Shown here piece after piece: positions 2,771 through 45,500 of a stretch of DNA of 64,000 bases. The position numbers were made by a program, and so were the translations under genes. Position 1 is the first letter of the stretch. The number at the start of each line of letters is the position of its first letter. Under the pieces are notes generated by a model that was not told where the DNA came from, ran no database searches, and saw only the letters and a program-made list of their open reading frames with translations. The DNA is from Catajapyx aquilonaris (taxonomy: Eukaryota), in the NCBI GenBank assembly GCA_000934665.2, contig KZ538296.1, positions 1 through 64,000 on the forward strand, given 5' to 3'.

Positions 2771-2825
2771 TTAAAAGAAGTCCCATTCAAGTCTCAAATC
2801 ATGTAAGAAAGAATCTGATACTAAC

Positions 2826-2941
2826 CGTTCCTTTCGAGTGAAGCGAGGACTGGCCCTCAGCCGTGGAGACACAACTCGCAAGGCCAAACGATCAGTATGC
2901 TTTGGATTGGTGCGGAGTTCTCGTGCTGGGATGCTCTTGGC
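2826..2941 (-). CDS. Double-chromodomain protein, coding exon 4
   Basis: ttttacag acceptor and gttagt donor. Continues exon 3 in frame: AKSIPARELRTNPKHTDRLALRVVSPRLRASPRFTRKER. Terminal exon not identified. Confidence 0.75.
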
Positions 2942-2973
2942 CTGTAAAAATCAAGGATAAAATTTGTTCCCAC

Positions 2974-3404
2974 TGAAGGCCTGTTTCCACCGGCATAATT
3001 TTTGAGCACAAAAATGGAGCACAAAATCAAACAGTTTGGAATTATTCCAAAGTACAAAATTTTGAACTTTTCACAAAATAATTGTGCCCGGCACAAAATG
3101 GAAATACAAGATGGCCAACTGTGGTGGACTTATCAGAATTATTTTGTGATAATTCAAGCACAATTGACAGTTAAATTAAGCTAAAAGATTTTCGGACTGG
3201 GGTTCAGTTTAAATAAAACACATTTGGAACTTTGGGTGCTCCCTTTCGAGCGCTCATTTTTGTTTCTTTTTGTGAAAAGAACAAAAATTGTCCTGGTTGG
3301 AACAGGTGTTTATTTGTGCCGCACAAAAATCGTCAAGGAAACAAAATTGTTCTGGCATAAAATTTGTCTGGAACAAAAATTATGCCGGTGGAAACAGGCC
3401 TTCA
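2974..3404. mobile_element. PIF/Harbinger-like MITE
   Basis: Terminal inverted repeat (TIR) TGAAGGCCTGTTTCCACCGGCATAATTTTTG ... CAAAAATTATGCCGGTGGAAACAGGCCTTCA. Confidence 0.7.
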
Positions 3405-3719
3405 CATCATAACTCTTGTGTAACAAGAATAATTATTCCCTTAAAAAAAACCATCATAAATATCTTCAGAAAAACAGTGCCTACTATCCGTTTATTTAAT
3501 ATAGGCTCCTGTGTTTGACTCAATACAACTTCCAGGCAAATGATGCAAAAAATTAATGTTATATATCGTTAGAAAGTGTTTTTTTTTCCTTTCTTTTTTT
3601 TAAAGTTACCCCATTGGAGAGAATGGAGCTCTTATTAGGGGTGGTGAACCACCGTAAATACCATTTTCTTATTTTTTCTTCAGCACCGGTGCAAGGATGA
3701 AAGGACGTGGGGTAGGGAT

Positions 3720-8598: not shown

Positions 8599-9263
8599 CT
8601 GAGACATGACAGAACTTTTCTTAATATACATAATATTTACCCAAGATCAGCTTCATAGAAAATCATCACAGAGAAATTTACAAACTATCCTACATACATA
8701 CTATTAAGAATAACTTATATTACGTAGGGGTCAGTGCAAATCTCATGCATGATCACCTCTCTCCCTAGATCTTCAAGTGTGTTGCTGAACCACAGGCAAT
8801 ATGTAAAGTAAATCCCAAGTGAGGAAATTGACAGAAACATCACTTGTTTCAGCTCTGAGTGAATATGAAAGCAATATGAACAGGTGGTTCTACTATTCAG
8901 TGCCATGATTACTTCCATAGATTTGTGTAGTTTAGTTTATTAGGAAAGAGCCAAAGAAACTATGGCTATCTGGCTATTGGAAGATGCAAAGGTGTGGCAG
9001 ATGGAGACATAAACAAAGAGGAAAAAGGAAAGACTGGTATCTCTCTTAGTCTGACTCTGTCTCCTATCCCAAAGACCATAACCCCCATAGAACAATCACA
9101 AGAATGATTCCTGTGAACAGAACAACATATGCTTTGCTAACTGCTAATACAGGGTGAAGTAAAACTCGTGGACAATCATCAGGTAGACTGATAGTACTTG
9201 TAACACTAATAGAGGGATGTGCAATTGGTTTTGGATGCCGCTGCATAGTTAATACGTATAGGG

Positions 9264-9690
9264 GTGGCGATAATCAAGAAGATTGACCAGTTCCAGTTAT
9301 CGTACAGATCCCAAATTTTGTACAAAAATTGGCCCTCCTCTGAAACCACCAGGAAAAGTCCAAAACCGGAAGTCGGCCATCTCGGGTCCAGACTGCCGCC
9401 ATTCAAACACGAAAAAAAATCAAACAAAATTGATAATAGGTGGCGATAATAATTTAAAAATGACCAGTTCCAGTTATCGTACAGATCCCAAATTTGGTAC
9501 AAAAATTTGTCCTCGTCTGATACCGCCAGGAAAAATCCAAAACCAGAAGTCGGCCATCTTGGGTCCAGACTGTGGCCCCGCAAACACGAAAAAAAATCCG
9601 ACCGAAATTGATAATTGGTGGTGATAATAAAAAAAGATTGACCAGTTCCAGTTATCGTACAGACCCCAAATTTTGNGGGGGGGGGACAAT
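9264..9690. repeat. Tandem repeat, ~178 bp unit (2 full + 1 partial)
   Basis: GACCAGTTCCAGTTATCGTACAGA recurs at ~9284, 9462 and 9640. Confidence 0.8.
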
Positions 9691-9831
9691 ACTCAAGGTG
9701 AGTGCAGCGCCAATATATTCTCAGGACAAAGACGTTGACCATACTCCGAGGCAGCTGAATTTTTACTTTCTTCGTTTCATTTTTCATTCATTCATTCAAC
9801 CTTGATTCAACTTGACAAAAAGTGGTGAGAT

Positions 9832-10554
9832 CCCCTCAAAAACGCACTCGTAAAAAACGCGCCAAGTCTTCCGCCGAAAAAACCTGTGAGATAGTGTCTG
9901 GGAGCCAAGCCTTGTCCACTCCGCCATACAAAGTCGTGAGATCGTGGTGGACGCCAAGCCTTTCTTCGAGGCTATAAGCTAAGTGAAATGACTTGGCCGG
10001 ACTTGGTTCACGGGCACGAGGAACAATGCGATGCGTGGTTTAATACAATAGAAAGTAAACTTTTAACACTCATTGGTAGAGCCATTACCCAAAAATGTGA
10101 CATTCGAATTGAAATATTTACTTTTAACTGTCAATGGTGGAGCAGTAACGTACCAACATAATTATATAGTTCCTCGATTCATTGGAATAATTATACATAT
10201 ACTTGGACCTCTGATTCGTATCACAGGAACTACAAAATGTCGCCTTCGAACCGCACATGCGCACATGATTACAATCGCGGTTTATTAGACTGAAAATTGA
10301 GTCGTACAGCTTACTGGGAGAACAGTAACTTGACCAAATTCCAGCGAACTGAACGCGTATTGTTCCTCATGCCCGTGAACCCAGTCCGGCCAAGTCATCT
10401 CACTTAGCTTATAGCCTCGAAGAAAGGTTTGGCTTCCACCACGATCTCACGACTTTGTACAGCGGAGTGGACAAGGCTTGGCTCCCAGACACTATCTCAC
10501 AGGTTTTTTCGGCGGAAGACTTGGCGCGTTTTTTACGAGTGCGTTTTTGAGGGG
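9832..10554. mobile_element. Foldback/MITE with ~200 bp near-perfect inverted arms
   Basis: CCCCTCAAAAACGCACTCGTAAAAAACGCG... / ...CGCGTTTTTTACGAGTGCGTTTTTGAGGGG. Confidence 0.8.
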
Positions 10555-10856
10555 ATTGATTTTACTCGACAGTGTTGGGATAATAATCAATTGCATTAAG
10601 GGGTCAAAATATTGTGAATTTGGAGTTAATTTCTAACGCCTCATGAGCATAAAAAATGGTGAATGTGCAGGAATCCTTATTCATATGTTTATAACAACAG
10701 TCAATGGTCCCATATATACTCTCCAAGTTGCATATTGTCCATTAACACCTAATGAATGGGTACCAGTGACTTTTACAGTGAAATAAGGGTTTTATCCTGC
10801 AATGATATGCACTCTTAATTTTTGGCACTTGTTCAAAAATCGAATTTTTTTTTATT

Positions 10857-16159: not shown

Positions 16160-16256
16160 GGGCCCTAGTCTGGCTGGACAGGGCAGGTAACTCACCTGTT
16201 GAGCAACTACCATGAGGACATATCTGAGACTTTAGTAGTAAACAACAAATTGACCC

Positions 16257-17423
16257 CTTTCCAGTCCCACACCTCTAGCAGCCAAAGTTAGCCTGCCATC
16301 AATCAAAATGGCGTCGTAATGCTATCAACAAGCGGGATTGTCCTATCCCTGCCCGTGTTAAAAGGCCTCTGCTTGTCCACGTCTGGTGGCCTGGCCCCGG
16401 GGCAGATCTTGTCGAAATATTATTTTTATGGATTGACCATGGACCTGCCCTGCCCTCACCAGGTGCCAAAAGTTAATTGGCCCCCGGGCAGACTGCCCAC
16501 AGAGTGATTTTGTGAGTCGTGATCGCGCTTTTCTCATTGCTATCTGGGCTCTTCTTGTCTGCATCTGGTGGTCTGGCCCCGGGGCAGATGTTGCTGGAGA
16601 TTTTTTCTGGAGTGACCAGGGGCCTGCCCTTCCCTTATCAGGTGCCTCAAATGAATCGGCCTCGTGGCAGATTGCCCCCGAAGTGATTTTATGAATGCAA
16701 CTTTCTCATTACTATCCGGCCTCTTGTCCGTGTCTGGTGGGCTGGCCCCGGCGCAGATCTTGCTCGGATTTTTTCTGGAGTGACCAGGGTCTGAACTTCC
16801 CTCACCAGGCCCCATGGCGGATTGCTGCCCCCGGAATGATTTTGTGAGTGTGACTTTCTCCTTACTATCCGGGAATGACTTGTGCGCATCTGCTGGTCTG
16901 GGACCAGGGCAGATTATCTCCAAAAAAATCCCAGCAAGATCTCCCCTGGGGCCAAACAACCACACGCAGACAAGAACAGCCCAGACAGTAATGAAAGTCA
17001 CATTCACAAAATTACTCCAGGGGCAATCCGCCACCGATTCACTTGAGGCACCTGGTAAGGGAAGGGCAGGTCCCTGGTCACTCCAAAAAAAATCTCCAGA
17101 AAGATCTGCCCCGGGGCCAGACCACCAGATGCAGCAAGAAGAGCCCCTAAGATAGCAATGAGAAAAGTGCGATCATGACTCACAAAATCACTCCAAGGGC
17201 TGTCTGCCCGGGGGCCAATTAACTTTTGGCACCAGGTGAGGGCAGGGCATGGTAAATCCATTTAAAAATATTTCGACAAGATCTGTCCCAGGGCCAGGTC
17301 ACCAGACGCGGACAAACAGAGGCCTTTTAACATGGGCAGGGATAGGAAAATCCCACTTGTTGATAGCATAACGCCATTTTGATGGCAGGCCAACTTCGGC
17401 TGCTAGAGGGCGGAACTGGAAAG
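16257..17423. mobile_element. Foldback element with internal ~130 bp repeats
   Basis: Long inverted arms (16260-16900 vs 16920-17423) built from repeated GGTCTGGCCCCGGGGCAGAT units. Confidence 0.75.
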
Positions 17424-17606
17424 TCTTCAATTGCACCGTTGGTCTGACGTCCAGACCAGACCTATTCACCGAACTTCAACAAGCAGCCCTGGCACTGACA
17501 TACTCAAAAGCACAATATTATCAAAATTTAAACACCACTTTTACACATCAACTTTAAACACGACTATTATCATTATTATTTACCCTGTTGAGAGGACAGG
17601 ACTCTT

Positions 17607-20564: not shown

Positions 20565-20845
20565 GAAGCAGTAGTGGTGTAGTGGATATGGTGTCCGACT
20601 GCTAATCGGGAGGTCCTGATTCGAATCCCGGAGGCCGGCGATCCTGACCTTGGTTTTCTGTGGTTTCCCAAGGTCGCTCCAGGAATAATTTCCGGGATCG
20701 TACCGTAAAATAGGCCACAGCCGCTTCCTTCCGTTCCCTGTCCTGGAGGAGGTGTGGGTCAGGCGGGGGTTTCTAACCCGCATCTAGGGGGTCATCTATG
20801 GCGAACGGACCCCCTGAGGGACTGCACACAAGTAACTGATTAAAT
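20565..20845 (+). mobile_element. tRNA-derived SINE, family C
   Basis: tRNA-like head followed by ...AGGCCACAGCCGCTTCCTTCC; copies at ~45345 and ~56384. Confidence 0.75.
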
Positions 20846-21000: not shown

Positions 21001-21850
21001 TGTAGATTAGTGGCAACTCATGATTAAGTTAAATCAAGTTAAGGGAGTTAGGCCACTATTCTCTCAAGTAGGTCCCTGAGAGGTTCCCACTTGCGTACCG
21101 TTCGGATGTTTCTAAGACAGCTCTAAGATGATGAGAGTGTATAGCGGGGAAGACAGAACCATAAACACAGAGACTCAGACAATCACTGTTTTATTCAGGT
21201 AAAACACATTGACAGGTAAACACCCTTGTGTCGTCATCTCACACTAGTTGGTCGTACCCTGGTAGGAGTGGTAGCTTCTAAGGAAGGCCCTCTGGGTTCT
21301 GGGTGGACGATGACAGTCTCTTCTGGATGCGTCAGGTCCTGGCCTCTCTGGGTGGTTAGGACCGGCTTGTCAGATTCTGGCTTCTGGCTTCGGACTACGT
21401 AACTCTCGACCTCTTGGACCCAAGTGCCCAAGAGTATTCTCCTGTTCTTAACAACCCACCAGTATTTATGGAGTCGAGGCCGGCAGTTAACGACGTCAGA
21501 ATCCTGGGGCAATTACCCTTCAGGATTCACATGACTTTATGTACAAGTACAGGACGTGTGGTCCAGGAAGGAGGATCTATGTGTCACCAGATTCAGGGTT
21601 CATGGGGGTATGCTGGCTATTCGGGGGGAACTACAATGATGAAGTCATCATTCCAATTGGGCTTCTGTGTGGTTGTGACCAAAAGGTCTAAAATCCACAC
21701 TGTGTTGTAAAGAGTGACTCGGCCCAGGTTGTGGTGAAGCTTATGCTACCACAAGTTCCCTAAAATAGTGTAAAGCCAGTGCCCTTTCAGGAAGACGTTG
21801 CATCAACGTAAAATGCCGGAAATAGCATGAATTTAGCCCTAAATGTAACA
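21001..21850 (-). repeat. 3' LTR of outer element
   Basis: TGTTACATT...AATCTACA on minus; AATAAA at 21190-21195; PPT at 21851-21860. Confidence 0.85.
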
Positions 21851-22922
21851 TCTCCCCTCCTAAGATTGGACGACCCGACCAATAACTATTTTCAAAATTT
21901 ACGTATTAAAACAAAACTCGTCTATAACTGCAAGCCTCCTTACAAACTCAATGTCAAGTCAGCTGTTCCGCAAAACAGCTGATGCGATGACACAGCTACG
22001 GCCCAGTTTACAATTCATTATCTCTACTACAACTTCTGCTAGAGAAAAACAAACAGTGTTATCAGGGTTGCATCACAATCAGTAATGGCTGCTCTCAACC
22101 AAAAAAAAAAAAAAAAACATTTCCAAGCCACCTTGGTGTTGTCTGAGAATTTTCACATTTTCATTGTTTCCAACTAAATCACACAAATCCATAAACAAGT
22201 ACATGAAATGTATAATAACCATTTGACCTAAAATAAACAACAACAATTATACAACTTGAGTAGTACGGGGGGATCCCAGTGGTTGCTGCCAAACAAAACA
22301 CACACAAAAAAATGTTATCAATTACATTTCTTGTAGCTTACAGTCCTTCCGGACCTGGGCCGCCTCTAATCCAATGGCAAAACAAACTAACAACGAAACA
22401 TTTCAAATTATGTTTAACCAGGCTGGCATCCATTAAACGGGACAACTGCAAAATGGAAAGATGTTACGTGAACCTAAATCACTTTATGCCCCAAAATTAT
22501 CACAAATCCATCCCAGTTTCAGGAGCTCCTAATGGCTCTCTACCCCCTCAGACTTGTTCCTCGGTCCCCGTTTTTTTTTTTTTTTTTTACTTAACCCATA
22601 CAGGACACCATCACCCTCCAAACCGACACACACCTCTCATTGGGGGCTCTTAGCAAGATGAAGGAGACAGGTTGGACAAAAGCACCAAACTTTGCATGGA
22701 GTTTTGTTTGGTCCTATGCTAATATAGTTTTTGGTAGGGTCCACGCAATCAGTGCACATGGGTCCTGTCACGTGCCATTTTTTTTCAGAAATCGCCCTGA
22801 GCAACGGAGGATTCCGCATCAAAGGAGCCACCTTTTGCCATAACCTTCTCCGATTTTGACCATATTCGGACATATTGTAGTTCCCATAAATGGGTTCATG
22901 CAACCGGGTTTGTTTAAGATAT

Positions 22923-23417
22923 TGTAAGGACCCTACATGGGCATGGAGACCTTATATGGGCATGAAGACCCTCCATGGCCTTATATGGTCATGGGTACTC
23001 CACTTCGTGGCATTAACGCCAGCTCAGAGAGTTCCGGGAAGAGACACGCCCTTAGGGTGTGATTGTGGTCGGTTACTCCCAGATATAAGGAAGAAGACAC
23101 AGTTGAAGAAGGGAAGACGCAGAAGAGAAGCAGAACAGTCCAGACAGCTTGGAAGCCTGACTTACAGAAGAAGAACCAGAAGGAGGGCCGAAGACCTAGA
23201 AGACGACTAGATGGCCTGACGGAAGACCCACCTTCCGTACCAGAGGCCATAACCGACCAGGACCATGAGTATCCAAGTGTATTAGGGTTTACCTAGTATT
23301 GTTTTATAATAAAAGGCAAAAAGGAACACCTGACTATTTGTATACCCTGGAACACTCTGGGCTACACCAAGAGAATGGCTTAACCAAATGTGAGACTACG
23401 CACCCCAGAATCTTACA
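22923..23417 (+). repeat. 5' LTR of inner element
   Basis: 495 bp; differs from the 3' LTR by about 5 substitutions and one 3 bp indel (counted by eye). Confidence 0.92.
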
Positions 23418-23420
23418 GTT

Positions 23421-23436
23421 TGGTGGAGGCGCTGGG
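23421..23436 (+). promoter_or_regulatory. Primer-binding site (tRNA-Ala-like)
   Basis: TGGTGGAGGCGCTGGG, 3 nt after the LTR end; complementary to a tRNA ending ...CTCCACCA. Confidence 0.75.
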
Positions 23437-23459
23437 TTTACATGTGAAATAAGCACAAA

Positions 23460-25184
23460 GTGAGAATTTCGAAGGCTAAAAAATGGAAGCGGTCATTAGG
23501 ACTTTCTTTCATTGGGGACTTTGGACAGTGGTGCTGTGATTTGGCTACTAAAGGACAATTAAAAGGTCTGTTTGCAAATGATCATAAGTTGGCACAAGCC
23601 ATCAGTAGTGTTCAAGGGCAAATACATCAAACACACACAGAGCTGCTCAAAACCGTGGAAAATTTGCAGAACTACGGCGAGGAAACCAACAAAGCCTTGT
23701 TGGAGCTGCACTCAGAAATTTTGCAGACAGTAGAGGCATTACATAAAGAAGGGAATCGTATAACAGGAATAATTGATGAAGTAGACAAGGAAGCTCAGGC
23801 TGGAATATGGTCCACCATGATGGCGTTTAGCAGAATGTCACAAATATTACAAATAATTCAGCAGTATGAAACCATGACGTTTTGCAAAGCACGGCAAATA
23901 CCTACGACTATTATTACCCCTGAGGTGTTAAAAAACGATTTGAACACGTTATCGGCTACGTTGAGGAAAAGCGGACAGAAATTAACTATTTCAGTAGAAG
24001 ACTTATCGGAGTATTTTAAACTTAAAATTTCGGAGTGTGCTATCAGTAACACGGAGATAGTAGTGCACATTAAAATTCCAATTTCAAAGCTAGAAAAAGA
24101 GTGGAAGTTGTTTGAATTAATTTCGGTTCCTTTTGCATGGCATGAAAATACATGCATTATTCCTCAGACACCATCTTTCGTCGCGGTGTCGCAAGGAGAC
24201 GTGCGAGCCATAACAGACACATATTTACATACTTGCAAACCATATGAAGATGGTTTATGTTTCATACCTAGGTATAGTTCAGATGTCTTAGATGGGCCTC
24301 TGTGCACCCAAACACTATTTGAGGGAGCAACGGTAAAAGAATTAAGCGATTATTGTAGATTTCATTGTCGTGAAGGCAAAATGACAATAATAAGCCAAGT
24401 TAATTTTGAAACGTACATTTTAACCCATGCACCTCACACAATTAGAATCACCTGTAAGGGAAAAGAGGATGTATACCTCAAACGAACTCAAAATGTTGGA
24501 GCCTTGGAAGTTCAAGTTCCTTGCAATTGTGTATTGTACTTTGGGCAGGATCGAAAAGTAGGAGAGCTGTTCCCATGTGATGCGAATTCGGTACGTGAAG
24601 CAACCGTACATCATATAATTCCCATGGCCTGGACCAAACTACAGCACTTGCAAATAGACACCTTCAGCAGACCATTGCAACCATTATTTTCAAACTTAAG
24701 TGATTGTTTTAATCCTAACTGGACGTTTGAGACGCCCATGTTAAATTTTACAAAGCCACGAGAACTGCAGAACATAGCCCAAAGACCCTACATGTTTGCG
24801 TTAGGTGAAGTCAGCACTAATACAGGATTATTGATTTGGAATGCTGCAAACAGTTTGTTTATACTGTTCATAATTATTAAAACTCCACGGCTTTTGTTGG
24901 GATTGCGCGTAAAGGGAGTAGCAGCAGAAACGGATATTCACGAATTATACAACCTCACGGAGGCGTTTAATGGTATACACACCGTAGTACTTTTGCTTAT
25001 TTTTGGAGCTGTCATATGGGGAGTATATGAGTTGATCAATGAATTCAGACGACACCGTCAAGAAATGAATAAACCAGTTGCATTAGAGATGACGGCTCAA
25101 GTTACATGTGAAATGCCAAAACCACGCACAGACGACAAGGAATCTCCTGAAAATGTAACCATAAGGAATAGAATGCCTGAATAA
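23460..25184 (+). CDS. env: F-type (baculovirus F/errantivirus env-like) envelope fusion protein, 5'-truncated
   Basis: 574 open codons. Basic site KKWKR, then fusion-peptide-like SLGLSFIGDFGQWCC, heptad region, Cys-rich ectodomain and two C-terminal hydrophobic segments. No signal peptide or ATG at the 5' end. Confidence 0.8.
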   Translation: MRISKAKKWKRSLGLSFIGDFGQWCCDLATKGQLKGLFANDHKLAQAISSVQGQIHQTHTELLKTVENLQNYGEETNKALLELHSEILQTVEALHKEGNRITGIIDEVDKEAQAGIWSTMMAFSRMSQILQIIQQYETMTFCKARQIPTTIITPEVLKNDLNTLSATLRKSGQKLTISVEDLSEYFKLKISECAISNTEIVVHIKIPISKLEKEWKLFELISVPFAWHENTCIIPQTPSFVAVSQGDVRAITDTYLHTCKPYEDGLCFIPRYSSDVLDGPLCTQTLFEGATVKELSDYCRFHCREGKMTIISQVNFETYILTHAPHTIRITCKGKEDVYLKRTQNVGALEVQVPCNCVLYFGQDRKVGELFPCDANSVREATVHHIIPMAWTKLQHLQIDTFSRPLQPLFSNLSDCFNPNWTFETPMLNFTKPRELQNIAQRPYMFALGEVSTNTGLLIWNAANSLFILFIIIKTPRLLLGLRVKGVAAETDIHELYNLTEAFNGIHTVVLLLIFGAVIWGVYELINEFRRHRQEMNKPVALEMTAQVTCEMPKPRTDDKESPENVTIRNRMPE

Positions 25185-25981
25185 GAAAGGAAGCTGCGAA
25201 AGTTGTCTAAGTCTACACAGACGGATGAGGGGTTAGGTGACTCCACTTTGAAACAAAGTAGACATAGCCCGGAGCCCCGTTTTGTCGTTGTGGATAGAGA
25301 CGTATGTTAAGAGGACAGGACAAAGAGAGAGAAAAAAGAGAGAAATAATAAGAAGTAATAGCGCAATGAAAATAGGGGATCCCCTCCAATCCTAGAATAC
25401 CCAATCCTTGAGTGAATTAACCAGCCATAGCGCTTGGCGAAAAATTGGGATTGTCAGCAGGAACCATAGAGAAACTGGCCAGTCTCACTTTGGAATCTGA
25501 CAGTGCAATTTTGTGAAATGGTATGAATGTTTAGATGATTTCTGAGTATATGAAAGTTTTCCCCGAGTCAAGAAGAAAAAAGAGAGTAACTGGTAGGAAG
25601 ACCAGTTTTGCGCAAGGAAGTTGTCCTAGTTATCAAGTATAAATAAATATGTTGATCAGCAGCACATGAGTGAAGAAATATAGGCATAATGTGGGTACGC
25701 AGAAACGGAAATCCATGGTTACAGAATCATAAAAGCGTTGGTATAACCCAGTCATCTGGGGTGTGGCAGGATGAGATAGGAAAAATGACATTTATTACTT
25801 ATGCGAGGAGAACTCAGTAAAACAGTGCAGTCTGCACGCAACGTTTGTGGTGGCAGGGTGGTTTGGTTTGTTGAACAAATAGTGTATGTTCCATTTATAG
25901 TTTGTTTTGAATTAGTTTTAGGATTAATGCTTTTTATTTCCAGCAGGGTATAATCTATATATTTTATTTCAGTAATTAGTC

Positions 25982-27672
25982 ATGTTTGTTTTTATATTGT
26001 TGTTGTCCGTGGGCCGGTTCGCCCTTAGTGATGAAGGACACTCTATCGAAACCTCTGTTAAGGTGTCTCCAGGAGTATTTTTGGCGAAAGTTGCTAGTCC
26101 TGTCGCGTACGAAACATCAGTGCCTGTGTTGTACACGTGGAGTCGAGAGAATTTAGAAAAGAACTTAACATCTCCACCGTGTGATTTTGTAGATCTAATT
26201 TCTTATTTGAACACGAAGTCTGGCTCATCCGTATATAGTGTACGTGGAGTCGTAGGAGTCGATGTCCTCCGGTCAGACGGAGAACTCCACTCCTCTTGTT
26301 GATATCGCATTGCTAAGAGTCATATACGGTCACTTTTCGTGAGTGCGACGGATTTGGCACTTACTTTACAAAATTTGCATACTTCTCCTGTTAGAGACAT
26401 CATTCCGTTAAGAGAATTATCTCAGCTGCAACAGCGGCCAAACAATACGTGTAGTCCGACGAGGCCACGACCAAATGCTATTTTATTGGGAGAAGAACTT
26501 CTCCGGGAAAGTCAACTCCGGGCGGAGCAAGAGCTGATACAGTCATGCCAAGATAGGCACATTCCTGCAGGATTTGTGGATGCAGTCCAGTTTCGATCAG
26601 ATTTAGAAACATTTCGAGAGGAAGTACGGAAATTTGGATATGACCTGGCCATCCCTCTGAGCGATGTACAACATTATTTTAAATTACCATTGGCGGATTG
26701 CTTAATATCACCTGACAAGGTAGTCGTGGGGATACAGATTCCCCTTGTCAAAATTGGACGTACATTCGAGTTTTTTCAGGTGGTACCTGTCTCGTTTGCA
26801 TGGAAAAAGATGACATGTGCTTTACCTGCTAGTGTGGAGTTTATTGCAGTTAGTGGCTCCACAGTTTTTCAGATCTCTTGCGATCCTTTTAATGCCGACT
26901 TATGTTTTGTAACACCCGCAGTTTGGGCGGCGCGTGACTTTCAGTGTTTAGACCTGGTTGTAGCAGGCGGAAGTGCCAGGGATTTTCAAAACCTTTGCCC
27001 GCTTCGTTGCGTGGAGCATGATGGGTTGCGAATTGTTAAAATTAATTATCAGAAATACGTTGTGGCGCATGCACCCAATAAGATAATTTTTAGGTGCCAG
27101 TCGATGGAGTTGGCACGTCATTTAAATCTAACATCGGATGTCGGGGCGGTTCTGTTGACCGTACCTTGTACCTGTGAAGCCCAGTTCTCCGCACACTTGG
27201 TGCTGAACCCCACCTTCCCATGTGTGGCAACGTCCCAGACTTTCTTAGTGGAACATACAATACCTATCCAGTGGGGTGCGACAAGAACGTTGCACCTCCA
27301 GCTGGATATTTCGAAAATGCTTACCCGAAATTTTCGGATATTTCGTCCCTTGTTGACGATACCTGGGATGTTCCTCACACGTCGGACGGTTTGTCCTTCA
27401 CAAATACCAGGTTTATGGTTGTGGGGGCTTCCTTGGGGATTGTGGCGTTTGTCCAGGTCACTGGGTTGGTCATTTTGGGCCTTTACATTAGGCGCCTTCG
27501 CGGATTACAAACCTGTCTATTTGGGGTACGGGAGTCACACTATCAGACTGCGCGGACGCTACAGTCCTTCCTGGCTGGAGAGTCGGTTCGCGGGCGTCCT
27601 ATTTTGCCCGTGGTCCGACCTCTTGTCCGGACGGACGAAAGTGGCTATGTGGAAGTTTCCCAATTTTTTTAG
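25982..27672 (+). pseudogene. env: Second, shortened F-type env paralog (disrupted)
   Basis: Signal peptide MFVFILLLSVGRFALS; in-frame TGA at 26300-26302; frameshift near 27300 into the TM-encoding frame. Aligns to env 23460 (YFKLPLADCLIS / VPVSFAW / VPCTC). Splice-acceptor-like tttatttcag at ~25972. Confidence 0.8.
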
Positions 27673-28155
27673 TTATTTTACTTTTATTTTATGTCATTTT
27701 TCTTGACCTTTTGGGCGTTGGTCTTTGTTTTGCCACGCTCGGATTTTGCTGATGTAATGTTTTGTATGCTTACATTGTTGAGCCACATCAGTGTCCTTTT
27801 ATTGTTCGTGATCGCGCCTCACATCAATGAAAACTGACTTTCGGTTTGTGAGGTCGCGTATCACAGTGCAGAGCACGCCTTTTTGTCCATTGGGACGTTT
27901 TGTTTTAATTATCAATTTTTCTCTCATTGTAAGATTTCTTTTTGTTGCTTTGAGTTGCTTGGGGAACACTCTCATGTTTCTGGTCGTTACTCTGGTATTT
28001 GGGACTACATTATATTTGGATATGATGGCTGTAGACATTTTGGGATGTCGCCGACGCCACTCCTCTGTGGTGGTGTCCTCCCGCTCTCTGACTTAACCCT
28101 TTTGGGCCTCGGGGGCGAGGCCTTCATTTTGTCGGGGGGGGGGGGGGGGNNNNNN

Positions 28156-28653
28156 TGTAAGGACCCTACATGGGCATGGAGACCTTATATGGGCATGAAG
28201 ACCCTCCATGGCCTTATATGGTCATGGGTACTCCACTTCGTGGCATTAACGCCAGCTCAGAGAGTTCTGGGAAGAGACACGCCCTTAGGGTGTGATTGTG
28301 GTCGGTTACTCCCAGATATAAGGAAGAAGACACAGTTGAAGAAGGGAAGACGCAGAAGAGAAGCAGAACAGTCCAGACAGCTTGGGAGCCTGACTTACAG
28401 AAGAAGAACCAGAAGGAGGGCCGAAGACCTAGAAGACGACTAGATGGCCTGACGGAATAAGACCCACCTTCCGTACCAGAGGCCATAACCGACCAGGACC
28501 ATGAGTATCCAAATGTATTAGAGTTTACATAGTATTGTTTTATAATAAAAGGCAAAAAGGAACACCTGACTATTTGTATACCCTGGAACACTCTGGGCTA
28601 CACCAAGAGAATGGCTTAACCAAATGTGAGACTACGCACCCCAGAATCTTACA
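28156..28653 (+). repeat. 3' LTR of inner element
   Basis: 498 bp copy of 22923-23417, preceded by a G-run PPT (with Ns) and followed by TSD ATAT. Confidence 0.92.
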
Positions 28654-29160
28654 ATATGTGTACGATGCGTGGTTTCGAAACTACAGGGTGTCAAATGTGC
28701 AAATTTTCTAGCATTTTTGCCCCATAAATGCTGTTACTTCGGAGGGCCACAAGGTCAGGTTAAATCTTAAATTTAACGTGTGAATTTGAAAGGTATTTTC
28801 ATTTTACATGAGATGGTCATTCATATGCGTAAGAAAATCCAAAATTTAAATTCAACATGGTTCCCAAAATGTAGATATTTTTATTACTCATTAATCGACC
28901 TACTATTCATTTTTAATGGCACTTCAAATAATACGGGAAATGTTTGCTTGTGGTTTCAGCCAAATGTGGAGATCAGAAATTGCTTTTGGTAGGATCCACA
29001 CGATCAGTGCTCATGAATCCTATCACGTGACATTTTTCAAAATTTGGCCTGCGCTACAAGCGCCGCGGAGCATGGCAAGCATCAATCCTCTTTTTGTTGA
29101 CCACAGAAGAGTACTCAGAGGTATTTTGTGCTGAAAAAAACTTTGCAACCAATACCTTTG

Positions 29161-29466
29161 TTAGGTCAGGTTCTGATGCACTATGTGTAGTGGAAGTGGT
29201 GGTTCAAAAGACAAAGAATGGCGAGATTCTACCACAGATTTTGTTTTCTTCTTGCAGTCGAACAATATTGTTTGGGAGATAGTAAGAGTTTCTTGGGTTT
29301 CATGCGAATCTTGTCTGTTGATGCCAGACCCATTTAACAACACTGAAACAAGCATTTTCAATGTCGTTGGTACTGAGTTTTGTTGGCAGTTTGGTGGGAA
29401 GGTGGAATCGAAGTGAAATCCATCCAATTCCAAAATGTCTTTTTGAATTACACGAGGGTCTTTCAA
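29161..29466 (-). pseudogene. Fragment of large TE-associated protein (DNA transposon remnant)
   Basis: DILELDGFHFDSTFPPNCQQNSVPTTLKMLVSVLLNG...LTISQTILF...RHSLSFEPPLPL resembles large repeat-encoded invertebrate proteins; lies between the TIRs at 22641 and 31211. Confidence 0.55.
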
Positions 29467-29477
29467 TAGATTTTTAA

Positions 29478-30842
29478 AAATGAGAAAGTATAGGAAGTAC
29501 TATCATGATGGTGATATACAGGGTGTTTCAACTTTTTTGTCAACAGTTATCGGAAATATTGCACAATAAGTTGCTACTTGTAAGCAGTGACTTGCAACCG
29601 GTTTGTCGAAGGAATGGGGAATATTCCCAGCGAATCTTAGGTTGAAGTGGCATACACTGCTTACAAAGTAGCAGCTCAGTGCAATATTTCCGATATCTGT
29701 TCGGACAAAAAAGTTAAAACACCCTGTATTTAAGTCTGTCTGTTGAAGATGGATGTGCATGCTTCAGAAGTCTACTGCGTATCATGTGGGTGTGGTAGCA
29801 GCACAAACACCCCCACCCTTGATGTCGCCTCCCGAGTCATGGCATCGACATGTATGAAGCAGTACACTGCGCTGAAATTCCACTTTTGCCTCAAAAAGAC
29901 AGCCAGGAAGTCGTACTCCACACTGACATAGGCATATGGAAAAGATATGTTCAAGAAGGGTCCCGAATTCACCTGCAAACAGGGCACTCCGAGAGCTTCT
30001 GCCAGGGCTGTGACGAAGGTGGCTATCAACATGGACTAATGTGAGAGGATCACTGTGTAACTTTGACTGTACTACCCTATTTGTTACAAAATATCTGTTG
30101 TTGATATGCACACAATAATGCATGACCACCTGCATTTTTTGAGGTGTGCATCGGCTGTGGCAGGAGCTCTTGAAGCTCCCTGTTTGCAGGTGAATTGGGA
30201 ACCCCCCTTGAAAGTCTTAAAACAACGGAGTGCCGTACTGTCAGGCAGAACATGTTCTCTATACTCCTAAAGGTTGGAGCAGGACTCAGCACTGTCTTCT
30301 TTTAGAGAAAGCAGAATTTCAGCACGTCGTACTGTGTGTCAACGCCATGACTTGGGAGGCGACATCAAGGGTGTTATACCTTCCTTAGTCTCTGGGTTGT
30401 TGGGTTTTTGGAGGAATAATTTGAGTCACTAAAGGAAGTATAAAATAGTTTGTATTGGGTTCTGAATAAAGCATGGAACAGCTTTGCTGGGTGGGGACCG
30501 ACTGACTCGACTCCAGGCCAGGGTGAGAGAATAGCCATAGGAGGAAAGGTAAGGAGGGGCGGCCTGGTATCATTGGCGGTTGGTTAGGAGAGGGGAAATC
30601 CCTCAAGTTCAGTCCATTTCTTAATATATGGTGCAATATACTACAGCCCACTCTTATTGCACAGTATGGTGCAATATTACAATAAATGGTGGGGGTGTTT
30701 GTGCTGCCACCACACACACATGATGCGCAGTAGACTTCTGCGCATAAACATGCACATCCATCTTCATCAGAAGTACATAAATATATCACCATCATGATAG
30801 TACCACCAAGAGCTAATGGTACCACCTATACTTTCTCATTAA
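29478..30842. mobile_element. Foldback MITE with nested mariner-type MITE (29517-29728)
   Basis: AATGAGAAAGTATAGG ... CCTATACTTTCTCATT; inner TA|CAGGGTGTTT...AAACACCCTG|TA. Confidence 0.7.
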
Positions 30843-31325
30843 AAAAATCATGATCAGTCTGTGGCATCAGGCGGAACTTTACAGGGGCCCCCCAGCCCCC
30901 ACATATAAAAATATACCCAATTCATTGCCCCCAATATGTGCCTCACTTAAATAACACATCAATAACACTTAAATAACATAGTAGTAGTCTGTGGGGAACC
31001 AGGTATTGTTATTTGTAATCCGACTGACGTACTATATCCGTTGGCTGATACGTTCACATGGAATATGACTCATAACTCTTGACCTAGTGTCATGATCACG
31101 TGGATCCTACCAAAAATCTAAAGCTTAAGCAATGCAGATTACATGAAAAAAAAATTGTGCTTTTGTCCGACCTGTCCCCATCCAGTCGAATTTTGACCCT
31201 AAGAGCCCCCACTCACAATGAGCTGAGCTTAAAATGGCAGATGCGTGTGGGACAAGAGTCCGATGCGTCCTCACTACTCATAAAATTTCAGCATACACAG
31301 GGGAACAGCCCGCGTCTGGAAACAA

Positions 31326-33430
31326 CTACCCACTAGCTGTAAGTTCTGGGTCGCGTGGTTGAGACAGGTTAGACGTCTCCCTTTCGGTTGGTGATACGGG
31401 AGGAGATGGAGGTAGCATCGCCCTTTGCGCTTTCACTTCTTGCATGATCTCCAAATCAGGCTGGGCCCTAGGCATCTGCCGAGAACATGAGTTAGCTGGC
31501 GGCATGGTGGTCTAGTGGTTACGCCGCTGGCCATCCAAGCGGGAGGCCGGGGTTCAAATCCCGTCCCCGTCACCTCTGCTGGGCCGGGTCTTTTTCCGCT
31601 TTTCACCCGACATGCCGGAGCAGAATTGTACTCCCTTCTCTGCTCGGGCCCAGGGGAAAAGGCCTGGTGTTAAAGAATGTCAGAAATGGCTATCGCACGG
31701 CGCCCTCCCTTGGGAACTTCCCCTTCCCCCCAAAGAGTGCAACGAGCTCTATCACGGGGTAACAAAACAAAACAAAACAAAACAAAAAACATGGGTTAGG
31801 TGAATTTTGTCTAGGGGCCAAATCACACCCCATTGGAAAAGAAATCATGCGAGCCTGTCGTGTAAGCTTTCTACGCACTTGACTTACTGTCCAACAAAGG
31901 CCAGTCACAAACACTGCGAGTGTGACCACCACCATTCCCAGAAGTATGATCACTGACTGATACCAACCAGCCTCCCATGCTCCCATGCCTCTGTGGAAGC
32001 GGGTGTCCACGACCCGTTCAGCGCTGACTGCACCGATGAAAAAAATAAAGCATTAGGTGCAAAATGACTTAGAACATGCAGGTCAGCAGTCCCGACCCAA
32101 GCTGCAGGGGTCAGAGGGTGTAGGGTCAGCTCGGTCGTGTGGGGCAAATAACATGGAAATGGAGGGGGCAACAAAATGCCTTCCCTCATCAGCAATGTGC
32201 ACTGGCACGGGATGCGTACCAGTACCCCTGTTTGCCTGGGCAATGTTATATCACTGACATTTCCAGAGCAATTAACCCTAAAACCTCCCCTGAAGTGTGT
32301 CAGGATATACGAGTGTGGCTCCATTTGCAAAATTACTAATTGGGTTTTCGTGCTACACTCCAGTGGACAAAAGTCACTCAACTTCCCCACCGGTCCTCCC
32401 TGAATAACTTGAGTAATGCATCGGAGATCTTTCGATCCCGATGCATATACGGAAGTCACATGGCATAAAGGGTCATGCAGAGGGTTGCAAGTTGGGACCA
32501 AGATGTCAGAAGATGTATGTACTACGGCGGGTACCTCATACATCTTCTCTTGCAACTTAATTTTGCACAGGTGAGTCTCCCCCCACGCAAAGGTGATTGG
32601 GGACACTCTGTATAATTTATACTGAGCGTCCGACGTTATCAAAGGGACGTTTACCACAATCGCTACTACAGTACATTAGGAGAAATTAAGCATTCTGCCA
32701 ACGTAAGTTTATAGTAGCTATTGAGATCGTCTGTACCTAGAGCAATCTGATAACCTGCTCTCCCCATCCTTTTCTCCAAGTCTTTTAGTGCTGACAATAA
32801 TTTGGCGGGTTGAATTAACGCATACGAAATCAACTCCATTTGGCAGTGAGTGATCGCATGCTGACGTAGAAGAAAGCGTTGCAGCTTAGCTACTTCTCCA
32901 GCGAAGCTCTGGTCAGACCCGAACGATGCTGGAGCCGGCAAAGGTACCGACGTCGCCATGAAATCAAACTGCTGGCCAATTTGAGTTTGTTGCAAAAGCT
33001 GTTTAAACAAACTAAACTCAGTCACAAAAAGAGACTTGACGTGACTTCGCATCAATGGGCAGCAGTAATTAAACAAAGTCCCGTCCGAGGTGATCATCTG
33101 CCAACCTGTTTTCTGGGCTACCAGGTGAGCCTTGCACAGGAATGCCTTATAAAACCGTCTGTCCATCCCTGATGCTAGTCGCGCTATCAAACATTCCGTC
33201 GAATTATCAATGCAACGGCGACTGAAGGTTGCCTGCGTATCCCCCAAGGGAATCTCATAAATTAGCGGTACTGTCGTTGCGTAAACCACAGTTTCAGGTA
33301 AAGCCTGAAAATGCAATCCCGGTGTCACTTCCACCTTTGGGTTGGTTCTCGCCTGGCATGCAAGAAAGAATGCAAGAAAGAGGACAAGCATTGTTAGAAA
33401 AAAGTAAGTACCATACCTAATGTACCCCAC
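31326..33430 (-). pseudogene. env: Third, shortened F-type env paralog (frameshifted, SINE-interrupted)
   Basis: Signal peptide MLVLFLAFFLACQA; YYKLTLAECLIS, SPITFAW and IPCQC motifs. Frameshifts at ~32670 and ~32000. TM VIILLGMVVVTLAVFVTGLCW; tail resumes after the SINE and ends at TAG 31326. Confidence 0.8.
31496..31787 (+). mobile_element. tRNA-derived SINE inserted in env cytoplasmic tail
   Basis: A/B-box head; (CAAAA)n tail; TSD AACATG(A/G)GTTAG at 31484 and 31788. Confidence 0.8.
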
Positions 33431-33523: not shown

Positions 33524-33898
33524 TTATGGTTTATCTATTCTGCGTGACTTACGAACCTCTCTTTCAGATGCTGAATGGACCTGACTGCCTTCGAATGAGC
33601 ACGCACGGTGGTCATCCTTGCGGACTGATGTCCTTCCTGCCTGAGATTCTGAACAACCTTCCCCGTGACGTGCAGTCAACTGGTCCTTGTACATACCGTA
33701 CAGTGTAGTGTGCACCGTCGTGGTTGCTTCTAATTTAACTTCCAGATCTCGTATTTTCGGTTGGCAACTATCTCTAGCTCCTTTTCGTCCGACGTTTCTT
33801 GACCATCCGAATAAATCACGTTGTAATCGCTTAATAGCCTGATGAATCTCTCTAACCTCTATTACGTTCCTTGACATAGCGTCAAAGTTATCTAACAA
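33524..33898 (-). CDS. Putative accessory coiled-coil ORF of outer LTR element
   Basis: ~124 aa open frame between PBS and env with heptad-like stretches (IEVREIHQAIKRLQRDL; KIRDLEVKLE); no family recognised. Confidence 0.35.
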   Translation of the reverse strand: MLDNFDAMSRNVIEVREIHQAIKRLQRDLFGWSRNVGRKGARDSCQPKIRDLEVKLEATTTVHTTLYGMYKDQLTARHGEGCSESQAGRTSVRKDDHRACSFEGSQVHSASEREVRKSRRIDKP

Positions 33899-34019
33899 CG
33901 TTGTAAATGCAAATCTACCTATACACTTATGCCTACTACCTGAATTGAGACACCTGGTTTAGATTCCTCTTTCACACTTCACTCTCAGAGCATTTAGAAC
34001 CATCTAACCTCCACCACAT

Positions 34020-34855
34020 TGTAGATTAGTGGCAAATCATGATTAAGTTAAATCAAGTTAAGGGAGTTAGGCCACTATTCTTCCAAGTAGGTCCCTGAGA
34101 GGTTCCCACTTGTGTACCGTTCGGATGTTTCTCAGATGATGAGAGTGTAGCGGGGAAGACAGAACCATAAACACAGAGTCTCAGACAATCACTGTTTTCT
34201 TCAGGTAAACACATTGACAGGTTATGATCACACCCTTGTGTTGTCATCTCACCCTAGTTGGTCGTACCCTGGTAGCTTCTAAGGAAGGCCCTCTGGCTTC
34301 TGGGTAAACGATGAGAGTTTCTTCTGGATGCGTCAGGTCCTGGCCTCGCTGGATGGTTAGGACCGCTTGTCAGGTTCTGGCTTCTGGTCGTCAGGCTGGC
34401 TTCTGGCTTCGGACTACGTAACTCTCGACCTCTTGGACCCAAGTGCCCAAGAGTATTCTCCTGTTCTTAACAACCCACCAGTATTTATGGAGTCGAGGCC
34501 GGCAGTTAACGACGTCAGAATCCTGGGGCAATTACCCTTCAGGATTCACATGACTTTACATACAAGTACAGGACGTGTGGTCCACGAAGGAGGATGTGTC
34601 ACCAGATTCAGGATTCATGAGGTATGCTGGCTATTCGGGGAGAACAACAATGATGAAGTCATCATTCCAATTGGGCTTTGACAGTGTGGTTGTGACCAAA
34701 AGGTCTAAAATCCACAGTGTTGTAAAGAGTGACTCGGCCCAGGTTGTGGTGAAGCTTATGCTACCACAAGTTCCCTAAAATAGTGTACAGCCAGTGCCCT
34801 TTCAGCAAGACATTGAATCAACGTAAAATGCCAAAAATAGCAGAATAATGACACA
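34020..34855 (-). repeat. 5' LTR of outer element
   Basis: Diverged copy (several indels) of 21001-21850; PBS TGGTGGAGG at 34016-34008. Confidence 0.85.
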
Positions 34856-37710: not shown

Positions 37711-37763
37711 TATATATTTTAACCATAATTGCAAACATTGCTAAAATGAAATATGGTAGGCTA

Positions 37764-38328
37764 TACAGGGTGTAAATGAATTCGATCGACAAACTTGTAG
37801 GGGTAATAGAGGGGACCAAGACAAGTATTTTTGACATAGGAACCCGTGTCCGGAAACGCCATCTAGAGGGGGTTCATAGACAAGGAACGGGTGTGCTCAG
37901 ACGCGTCAGGAGGGGGCGCTAGGCGAGCGGACTGTTTTGTTGATAGAGGACGCGCAGTTGTTGCCAGGTTATGGCATATTGCGTCGTCGTAAGCAAACAA
38001 CGATGTGATACACCATAACATGGCAACAACAGAACCGTTGTTTACTCTCCACGCGTTTCCTAGGAGGCGTACTTTAGTTGCCAGATGGCTCTGTTGTGGC
38101 CAGGTTATGGCACATCTCACCTTTGTTTACTATCCGAGCGCCATCTATCAACAAGTCAGTCCGCTCGCCTAGCGCCTCCCGCGTGGAGCGTCTGAGCGCA
38201 CCCGTTCCTCGTCTATGAACCCCCTCTAGATGGCGTTTCCGGACACGGGTTCCTATGTCAAAAATACTTGTCTTGGTCCCCTCTATTACCCCTACAAGTT
38301 TGTCGATCGAATTCATTTACACCCTGTA
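37764..38328. mobile_element. Tc1/mariner-type MITE, near-perfect long TIRs
   Basis: TA|CAGGGTGTAAATGAATTCGATCGAC ... GTCGATCGAATTCATTTACACCCTG|TA. Confidence 0.85.
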
Positions 38329-38599
38329 TTTGTGAAGTCCATATGCATTTTTTGAAGAAACTTCAAACAAAATTAGTACCAATTAGAGCTTCATTATTAT
38401 TTCCCTTCAACAGCCATATGACCAATCATTCCCAACATATAAACAAAACAACAGCATTTTTGGTGTCAAACCAAAGGTCAATAATTCCCATTTGCGTATT
38501 TTAATGTTGTTATAAGGCATCTAACATGACTCCCAGGCCTCAGACAAGCTCTGCACATGTCTGGTTACAAGTACGGGATCAAGAACTTCCAATGCTTAC

Positions 38600-38973
38600 T
38601 TTTTTGTCAGATCGAAGTTCATTCATTCTCCTGTGAATGGCCTTGACTATGGAAAGATTGGACACTTGATCCCCTTGGTCATCCATAAACACCTGGTTCC
38701 ATGAGATGCGAGGCTCCAACTTGGTCACACGTATAACCAAAACATTCCTATTCAACATGTTGCTTATCTCACAGGTAGAAACTGGCAGTGAGAACACACA
38801 ATCCATCAAAGTGGCCCCACTTGGCAACTTGATGGATATGTTCTTCTCTTCAACATGTATGTTGCACTCTCCTTCCCCAATATCTTCTGGCAGTGTGATC
38901 CATACTGTGATGATACTGTCGTCTTGCATCCACAAGTAATTGGGGCTGTCACTTTCAGAGAGTTGATGTTCAA
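38600..38973 (-). CDS. NUDCD1: NUDCD1 exon 5 (CS/p23-like domain)
   Basis: YLWMQDDSIITVWITLP...LVIRVTK...W matches the CS domain pattern; splice phases consistent. Confidence 0.88.
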
Positions 38974-39269
38974 CTAGAAGCACAAAATGCATCATATATT
39001 TAATTCATTTTTTTCAAACCCAAGTTACACTAAAACTGCACTAGCAGAAAGGAAGAAGAGTTACTCTGATTGGTTTTGAACCATGCACTGACCTCAAGCT
39101 GAAAAATCAAGTCAGGGACCCTGCTCCACCTCTGAAAGCCAGAAGCAATTTGGTGGCACTGTTCCTTGTTTTTACCACCATCTTGTGGCCAAAGTCTGCC
39201 CATAACCAAGCATTTCTTATGTTCGGTACATAATGTTTTTGTCAGAAGCATGCTGATGGATAAATTATC

Positions 39270-39812
39270 GTCACAACCAAAGTAACTCTTCTTACCCTCC
39301 TGAATTTTGAAAATTTTTGCATTTCCTAATTCCGCTTGGCCTATAGTGTTGAGAAAACATCACCTCCACTGCTAATTTCCACGTTAGCAGGGTGAAAATA
39401 CAGCTAAAGGTGATATTCCGAAGCCACAACACCTGCATCCGGTCGCGGTCGCCTTTCCCCACGTCTGTGCTCTCTCCGGTGCCATGAAGGAGAAGGGTCA
39501 TCTCGCACGCTTTGAAGTCGAATTATTATAATCGCCTTTGACTTCAAAGCATGCAAGATGACCCTTCTACGCAGCACTGGAGAGCGCTACAGACGCGGTG
39601 AAAGGCGACCGCGACCGGGCAGCCGGGGACTCGCGACAGGATGCAGGTGTTGTGGCTTCGGAACATCACATTTTGGCTGTATTTTCACCCTGCTAACGTG
39701 GAAATTAGCAGCAGAGGTGATGTTTTCTCAACACTATAGGCCAAGCAGAATGAGAAAATCAAAAAAATTTCAAAATTCAGGAGGGTAAGAAGAATATTAC
39801 TTTGGTTGTCAC
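39270..39812. mobile_element. Foldback MITE
   Basis: ACAACCAAAGTAA...TCTTACCCTCC / GGAGGGTAAGA...TTACTTTGGTTGT; nearly wholly palindromic. Confidence 0.8.
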
Positions 39813-45344: not shown

Positions 45345-45500
45345 CAGTAGCACTGCTAATCGGGAGGTCCTGGGTTCGAATCCCGTGGCCGGCAACCTTG
45401 ACCGTGGTTTTCTGTGGTTTTCCACGGTTCTTTCTAGGATAATTCCGGGGTCGCTTCCGTATAATAGGCCACAGCCGCTTCCTTCATTCTCTATCCTCGG
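45345..45500 (+). mobile_element. SINE family C (partial) in the NUDCD1/RNF146 promoter region
   Basis: Homologous to 20565-20845. Confidence 0.7.

Follow-up and report, generated by a model that had tools for sequence, protein, structure and literature searches.

Two decayed envelope genes within LTR retroelements of Catajapyx aquilonaris point to a furin-less class of F-type paralogs

Profile scans in all six frames of a 64,000-nucleotide stretch of Catajapyx aquilonaris DNA (GenBank assembly GCA_000934665.2, contig KZ538296.1, positions 1 to 64,000; hereafter the window) found F-type envelope (env) sequence at three loci only. One of these, env1, is a canonical F gene of what we call class 1; the other two, env2 and env3, are by their sequences decayed copies of a distinct, old F-type subfamily, class 2. 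Proteins of this second class keep the signal peptide, the N-terminal strand, the 12-cysteine F head and a single membrane anchor, and are missing the furin site, the hydrophobic fusion peptide (a charged DGxL...RxHVK stretch stands in its place), about 36 residues of the first heptad-repeat region (HRA), the membrane-proximal helix and the second hydrophobic segment. env2 follows env1 within one provirus and env3 lies in a second unit; that the two genes sit in different elements had been claimed in the original prediction made for this DNA and proved correct, both elements being bounded by long terminal repeats (LTRs). We propose that class 2 would be an uncleaved, non-fusogenic companion glycoprotein of F, which binds the target cell and/or controls the triggering of F and whose trafficking is steered by a tyrosine motif in its tail. 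Taken as a whole, we regard this statement as evenly poised between right and wrong.

The class was defined from outside relatives. When 1.84 billion representative proteins were searched exhaustively with a profile, 984 relatives were obtained at E≤1e-3, 237 of them at E≤1e-30, and the best 150 of the 984 were listed. The majority belong to class 1: proteins of 600–720 amino acids (aa) in which R-x-K/R-R is followed by (A/S)LDFIGD.L.WCCGVAT, with 120–130 residues to a conserved cysteine. Class 2 was represented in a first alignment of 103 rows by five intact members (P0082, from a Logan assembly, P0111, P0112, P0113 and P0136; 559–620 aa) and by a fragment, P0074, from ENA. All six are without a furin site, carry (I/V)L..DG.L......R.HVK..F at the place of the fusion peptide and have 82–90 residues to the conserved cysteine; from there to the next conserved cysteine it is 49 residues in the five full-length proteins and 51 in env2 and env3. 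A search that returned names identified P0112 as an uncharacterized protein of the firefly Photinus pyralis and gave further firefly relatives in Aquatica leii (P0151, P0152 and P0155) and Lamprigera yunnana (P0153, P0154, P0156, P0157 and P0158), all of the class-2 firefly proteins being annotated as hypothetical. We presume that P0112 may owe its UniProt record to a transcriptome; its gene would then be transcribed. Three of the firefly gene models (P0157, P0158 and P0152) fuse class-2 fragments to unrelated parts of host-like character, one being a multi-pass membrane protein, another a matrixin domain and the third a foreign C-terminus; class-2 relics appear to contaminate gene predictions. 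A locus search with P0111 and P0112 yielded 238 metagenome and 87 viral stretches that fitted the search pattern, none of them a relative.

Class statistics were taken from one later alignment that includes the firefly relatives, with 8 full-length class-2 rows, all intact database proteins of 549–620 aa from several sources, and 80 class-1 rows, env1 among them. A furin motif is present in 0 of 8 class-2 rows as against 73 of 80 class-1 rows. Within the 22-aa window that corresponds to the fusion peptide, the median number of charged residues is 7 in class 2 and 4 in class 1, and mean hydropathy is −0.26 and +0.42, respectively. HRA has a median length of 88 residues (range 82–89) in class 2 but 124 (107–133) in class 1, and its heptad-like cover, by a crude score of our own making, is 31 of 88 residues as opposed to 80 of 124. 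The distance from the head tryptophan (CLNxxW) to the first hydrophobic segment is 11 residues in class 2 compared with 34 in class 1; there is one such segment in 8/8 class-2 rows, whereas 47/80 class-1 rows have two. The 12 head cysteines, by comparison, are nearly invariant across both classes.

Both class-2 genes of the window are pseudogenes, assigned by frame reading, alignment and placement in the class-2 clade. env2 occupies 25982–27672 on the plus strand, the extent originally predicted for it, from an ATG at 25982 to a stop at 27670–27672, and is broken by an in-frame TGA (26300–26302) and a frame change between 27322 and 27325. Its transmembrane (TM) segment is at 27412–27489 and its tail motif, GYVEV, at 27643–27657, close to the protein end ...GYVEVSQFF. 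env3 occupies 31690–33391 on the minus strand, with an in-frame ATG at 33391, frame changes near 32670 and near 31975, a TM segment at 31885–31956 and a stop at 31690–31692. Its limits had earlier been put at 33430 and 31326; the former lies about 40 nt upstream of the real start, where there is no in-frame ATG, and the latter overshoots the stop. Inserted in the 3' end of env3 is a transfer RNA (tRNA)-derived repeat on the plus strand (31501–31795), similar to a short interspersed nuclear element (SINE), which has an (AACAA)n tail and at whose edge, 31501, the source contigs show many loose ends; it and a second repeat at 29436–29789 are very high-copy sequences, both exceeding a depth of 10^4 in those contigs. 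The interior spanning env1 and env2 and that of env3, by comparison, each assembled as a single contig at unique depth, about 21–33, in the probable source sample. The stretch is present in four DNA runs of that sample and in no listed RNA run. The env copies in the window are old, dead, single-copy relics inside proviruses without gag and pol.

The features that had been read from the two genes largely held. Both have a hydrophobic signal peptide, and both retain the cysteine-rich core and the TM segment. In each the fusion-peptide region is degenerate (env2, 26279–26338; env3, 33026–33082), a polar SDGxL...SH(I/V)(R/K)SLF stretch replacing the fusion peptide, and no RxK/RR precedes it, where env1 has KKWKRS; the CC pair of this region is still there in env3 and reduced to one cysteine in env2. 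From the cleavage-equivalent column to the conserved cysteine we counted 97 residues in env2 and 85–87 in env3 compared with 128–129 in env1, and the helical region contains six prolines in env2 and four in env3. The heptad region is therefore shortened as claimed, but not by most of its length: about a quarter to a third is missing. Similarly, the N-terminal strands are present (env2, 26057–26134; env3, 33257–33334), but they are not particular to these two genes, the class-1 consensus having the motif too.

Comparison of the window copies among themselves is not enough to place them. Over 273 aa, env2 and env1 share 32% identity (E 2e-46), and env3 is 27% identical to env2 both in its N-terminal piece (E 3e-17) and in its core piece (E 2e-22). 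As raw identity between env2 and env3 is no closer than that of either to env1, class membership needed the outside sequences. Against the Pfam family Baculo_F, the main frame of env2 scored 17.7 bits (E 0.0015), under the cutoff of 24.1, and the three env3 pieces gave no match; among the class-2-containing database proteins 1 of 12, P0136, reached the cutoff (25.9 bits). A word-index protein search with env2 found no match among 8000 scored candidates.

Two phylogenies, both built by a quick method, bear on whether env2 and env3 belong together. The core tree used 256 columns, with the cleavage and heptad columns left out, and 71 of the 103 rows (every class-2 row, the first 30 of the rest and alternate rows thereafter); the full-length tree used 648 columns and 59 rows (12 class-2 and 47 class-1). 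In the core tree the 8 class-2 rows form one branch with a support of 99 in the Shimodaira–Hasegawa-like approximate likelihood ratio test (SH-aLRT), within which env3 joins the pair of env2 and P0074 at 85. In the full-length tree the 12 class-2 rows again form one branch, with SH-aLRT 100, and the same grouping of env3 with env2 and P0074 receives 94. The two genes thus group together as had been predicted. These trees also bear on the plainest alternative, that env2 and env3 are decayed ordinary F genes in which local damage has removed the furin site and shortened the heptad region. Both are indeed pseudogenes with stops or frameshifts and single-copy relics, but the same features recur in the eight intact database proteins, which likewise have no furin site and a short heptad region, and these fall into a single clade with env2 and env3 when the columns of the trait itself are left out. 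Plain decay is in our view effectively excluded, and the paralog class appears real and conserved, its intact members sharing one architecture and one clade.

Alignment of the class profiles with hhalign gave a probability of 100% (E 9.7e-62) over 444 columns, from the N-terminal strand to CLNxxW, so that homology extends over the ectodomain. About 35 columns are gapped in class 2 within the helical region, and about 160 class-1 columns past the head have no counterpart. Structure prediction with AlphaFold2 gave a corresponding picture. The model of the class-2 protein P0112 has a mean predicted local distance difference test (pLDDT) score of 79.5, with values above 90 in the head and below 50 in the segment equivalent to the fusion peptide (residues 102–122). 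Before the conserved cysteine it shows short helices, a strand and one 26-residue helix, and its TM helix begins about 8 residues past the head. The model of the class-1 protein P0002 has helices at 174–207 and 211–250 before the cysteine (34 and 40 residues) and at 540–554, 559–596 and 610–652 past the head. In Foldseek both models matched paramyxovirus and pneumovirus F with probability 1.00, at low TM-scores of 0.2–0.4; prefusion structures made up 9 of the top 10 matches for P0112, and postfusion structures 5 of the top 10 for P0002. Searches by sequence against profiles from the PDB yielded no relative of known structure for either class; in them the class-1 helical region weakly matched coiled coils (E 0.07–1), whereas that of class 2 did not. 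Errantivirus F is described as a head plus a stalk, with furin site and fusion peptide conserved (PMC13524379). On the models, class 2 is predicted to be an F head without the stalk.

The pairing of the two classes is seen directly in element 1, which spans 22923–28653 on the plus strand. Its LTRs (5', 22923–23417, TGTAAG...CTTACA; 3', 28156–28653) are direct repeats of 495 and 498 bp, about 99% identical, with 5 substitutions in 495 aligned bases and one 3-nt indel (Kimura two-parameter distance, K2P, 0.010). They are flanked by a target-site duplication, ATAT, at 22919–22922 and again at 28654–28657. A sequence resembling a primer-binding site (PBS), TGGTGGAGGCGCTGGG, which begins TGGTGGAGG, lies 3 nt past the 5' LTR (23421–23436), and a poly-G polypurine tract of 16 G followed by an N6 run (28134–28155) abuts the 3' LTR. 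Element 1 accordingly has each of the provirus hallmarks that we looked for: a TG..CA LTR pair, a target duplication, a PBS and a polypurine tract. One integrated provirus therefore carried a class-1 gene and then a class-2 gene.

The first of these, env1 (23448–25184), is an N-terminally incomplete class-1 gene, open for 578 codons, whose frame starts about 10 nt after the PBS and 16 codons before the furin site. That site, KKWKRS (23478–23495), immediately precedes LGLSFIGDFGQWCC; the fusion peptide is at 23496–23573 and two hydrophobic segments follow at 24828–24878 and 24975–25028. Identity to database F proteins is about 30–34%. env1 matches Baculo_F (PF12259) with E 1.6e-10 and 40.7 bits, above the cutoff, its residues 3–363 aligning to positions 128–466 of the 609-position profile. 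Since the match begins only at position 128, the N-terminal F2 part is absent, and the start is missing as well. Between env1 and env2 is a spacer of about 0.8 kb (25185–25981) with two polypyrimidine-AG stretches 9–40 nt before the env2 ATG, which are possible splice acceptors. Neither element has a recognizable gag or pol: the 58 other ORFs (open reading frames) of at least 60 aa between 20.5 and 35.5 kb gave no match to gag, protease, reverse transcriptase or integrase, and three matches at chance level (E 0.01–0.05). An Rfam scan of 20–36 kb found nothing. The sequence indicates that element 1 is internally deleted, gag, pol and the start of env1 being gone.

env3 is found in element 2, which lies on the minus strand and is heavily rearranged and internally deleted. 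Its 5' LTR (34020–34842, TG...CA on the minus strand) and 3' LTR (21001–21828) are direct repeats that differ by 38 substitutions in 796 aligned bases and by 11 indels (K2P 0.049); a target duplication was looked for and none was recognized. A PBS-like sequence, TGGTGGAGGTTAGATGG, 3 nt past the 5' LTR (34000–34016), starts with the same 9 nt as that of element 1. The order after the PBS is a small ORF, env3 (620 nt after the 5' LTR and PBS), high-copy repeats and the nested element 1, which is inserted antisense between env3 and the 3' LTR. The small ORF (33527–33876, minus strand; about 117 codons from its ATG) is coiled-coil-like, has no Pfam match and may be a leader or a gag remnant.

Beyond the window, the evidence for a tandem arrangement comes from gene models. 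In P0154, a Lamprigera yunnana model of 1031 aa, residues from about 234 to 587 are class 1, with RQKR and ALTFIGDFSWCCG, the signature FIGDFSWCCG following RQKR, and class 2 begins at residue 594. P0065, a gene model of 716 aa, is class 1 up to the C-terminal hydrophobic region and then class 2. The two are about 72–74% identical to each other and their class-2 parts are almost identical to P0153, suggesting several recent copies in that genome. A layout of F followed by class 2 is thus inferred for fireflies from the predicted proteins. Published coordinates are uninformative on this point: a supplement in eLife holds one Lamprigera errantivirus, but as all its coordinate spans include flanks of about 2 kb, the length of that element says nothing about a second env. 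We also searched for loci with 14 class-1 proteins. The 98 metagenome stretches that resulted gave two loci, L001 and L002, and the 70 viral stretches none. On the L001 metagenome contig the C-terminus of an integrase (1–737) is followed by an intact class-1 F env of 714 codons (1470–3614) with a signature identical to that of P0010; it looks like an ordinary errantivirus-like pol–env unit without a second env. L002 has 0.7 kb of downstream sequence only, too short to tell.

What class 2 might do follows in part from what it is missing. A class I fusogen requires cleavage, a fusion peptide and the refolding of heptad-repeat regions A and B (HRA and HRB) into a bundle. When the features of such a fusogen were looked for in class 2, the head fold, signal peptide and TM segment were found, and a furin site, a hydrophobic fusion peptide, and a long helical region with a membrane-proximal helix were not. 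Without cleavage site, fusion peptide and refolding parts, class 2 would not be expected to achieve membrane fusion by the usual route. It could instead be an unconventional fusogen or entry protein that has an internal fusion element and is either not cleaved or cut at one basic residue only, and could serve as the sole env of some elements such as element 2. Such a role would accord with the full conservation of the F head including its 12 cysteines, with the K or R that stands just before IL.DDG in 5 of 7 intact members, and with the presence of env3, and of no class-1 gene, in element 2. However, what follows the putative site is an acidic or charged stretch (the same median of 7 in 22 residues and negative hydropathy as given above), the helical region is short and, in env2, env3 and P0136, contains prolines, and the roughly 11 residues from head to membrane leave no HRB-like partner helix; element 2, moreover, is heavily rearranged and is without gag and pol too. 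We consider this explanation improbable.

The preferred reading, a non-fusogenic companion of F, would work as follows. LTR retroelements would carry the second env gene immediately behind a canonical, cleavable F gene; its product would be displayed uncleaved and head-only together with F on the cell or particle surface, where it would bind the target cell and/or control the triggering of F, and the tyrosine motif in its tail would direct its trafficking. Of 9 class-2 proteins, 6 carry this motif, Y[IVL]x[MLV], among their final 16 residues, and env2 has it too, whereas none of 79 class-1 proteins does. We take it to resemble endocytic YxxPhi signals. The same observations can be turned towards receptor interference, or superinfection exclusion, in which class 2, produced by cells harbouring the element, would bind the entry receptor and remove it from the surface by way of the tyrosine motif, limiting re-infection by the same or rival elements. 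A membrane-anchored F head without fusion apparatus and with a class-specific tail motif would be suited to this, and env-derived receptor blockers, Fv4 and Rmcf, provide a precedent (PMC1262188). Yet in retroviruses the normal Env already interferes, so that there is no obvious need for a second gene devoted to this; the tail motif might just as well direct the protein to a budding site, and receptor binding or down-regulation is purely putative here. We therefore rate interference as unlikely. For a role as an immune decoy we found no support.

Being encoded next to F, class 2 would be co-expressed with it, and might also act as a dominant-negative regulator, forming mixed trimers with its own or a competitor's F and holding them inactive, as proposed for Drosophila Iris. 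Fold and head are those of F, and class 2 resembles Iris in being uncleaved (PMC1262188). Much of the helical core that builds the trimer axis of F is missing, however, which makes mixed trimers less likely, and identity between class 1 and class 2 is about 20–32%. A dominant-negative function strikes us as quite improbable.

Several observations weigh against a companion role, or against the evidence from which it was drawn. The class-2 rows sit on long branches, and artificial attraction is conceivable, but the indels and motifs that these rows have in common lend independent support to the grouping and argue against a long-branch artefact. The AlphaFold2 models are of monomers, and the class-2 model is that of a relative, P0112, rather than of env2 itself. 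The single K or R before the IL.DDG stretch makes monobasic cleavage of some class-2 proteins possible. env3 lies in an element without any class-1 gene anywhere in the window belonging to it; class 2 may thus also work alone, or the F gene may have been deleted from element 2 together with gag and pol. The firefly tandems are automated gene models, not DNA, and no class-2 sequence was found in the 2 kb downstream of the L001 env. Finally, the class-1 genes paired with class 2 are not most closely related to one another: that of the firefly groups with P0002 at 100 and apart from env1. Together with L001, this implies either that class 2 has often been lost or that it has moved between elements.

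In its widest form, the companion reading would describe a two-glycoprotein envelope that arose in a lineage of animal LTR retroelements by duplication of F, with a cleavable fusogen and an uncleaved, head-only paralog for receptor binding or triggering, convergent with the F and attachment proteins of paramyxoviruses. Found in the host of the window and in fireflies, such a module would be old; it may have multiplied recently in Lamprigera yunnana, and furin-less host genes of the Iris kind might descend from its ready-made non-fusogenic genes instead of from fusogens that decayed. We offer this larger scheme tentatively and think it doubtful as a whole. Errantivirus-like elements have been credited with one infectivity gene only, F-type env, and surveys assign a single env ORF to each of them. 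In the open full-text literature, with look-ups of terms in PMC13524379 and PMC12992720 and with subscription journals outside its scope, our search met no description of a second F-like env gene. If true, a conserved second, non-fusogenic F paralog would change the view of the entry machinery of these elements. It would also supply a naturally occurring head-only F with which to study the restraint and triggering of class I fusogens, a name for unannotated hypothetical proteins in arthropod genomes, and a possible source of domesticated furin-less env genes.

The remainder of the 64-kb window reads as animal DNA, with a GC content of 43%, and a CpG observed-to-expected ratio of 0.58; repeats are numerous and long ORFs scarce. 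At 9235–9673 there is a tandem array with a period of 177 bp (three copies, 61–100% alike), and long inverted repeats resembling hairpins or miniature inverted-repeat transposable elements, with arms 77–96% complementary, are at 9830–10556, 16248–17432, 37763–38329 and 39270–39812. An exon-like ORF on the minus strand (38582–39004) has a weak match to the CS domain (Pfam E 0.0076), its nearest Atlas clusters being all CS-domain proteins, and is probably part of a host gene. A tRNA-Ser(GCT) call at 56387–56458 (plus strand) overlaps a repeat family seen also at 20598–20731 and 45352–45485, which makes a tRNA-derived SINE copy likelier than a working tRNA gene.

Among known systems, the F proteins of errantiviruses and baculoviruses (PF12259) are the nearest. 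env1 is a plain member of that family, and class 2 is homologous to it over the whole ectodomain, with signal peptide, N-terminal strand, 12 cysteines and TM segment kept and a predicted paramyxovirus and pneumovirus F fold. Published descriptions of F, however, stress the conserved furin site and fusion peptide (PMC13524379 and PMC12992720). Class 2 is without both; its helical region is shorter, it has no membrane-proximal helix, its tail differs, and it mostly escapes the Pfam model. By analogy only, a cleavable class I fusogen next to the gene of a non-fusogenic surface glycoprotein recalls the paramyxovirus pair of F with HN, H or G. The attachment proteins of paramyxoviruses are type II proteins unrelated to F, whereas the second protein here is a paralog of F, in a putative partnership with it.

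Furin-less homologs of F are known in two further cases. The F-like proteins of group I alphabaculoviruses (Ac23 type) are non-fusing and occur beside another, working fusogen (PMC4864199), but they belong to a large DNA virus in which that fusogen is the unrelated GP64, whereas class 2 lies in an LTR retroelement beside a canonical F. Drosophila Iris (CG4715) is a domesticated F-type env without furin site and fusion peptide that keeps the conserved cysteines and for which a non-fusion role has been proposed (PMC1262188). It is, however, a single host gene without retroviral flanks, and neither env2 nor env3 is of that type: both are enclosed in LTR elements, and one firefly has class 2 in multiple copies. 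By description rather than by sequence comparison, class 2 is thus set apart from both the Ac23 type and Iris in being retroelement-borne and paired with a canonical F, and in having further shared deletions and a tail motif of its own.

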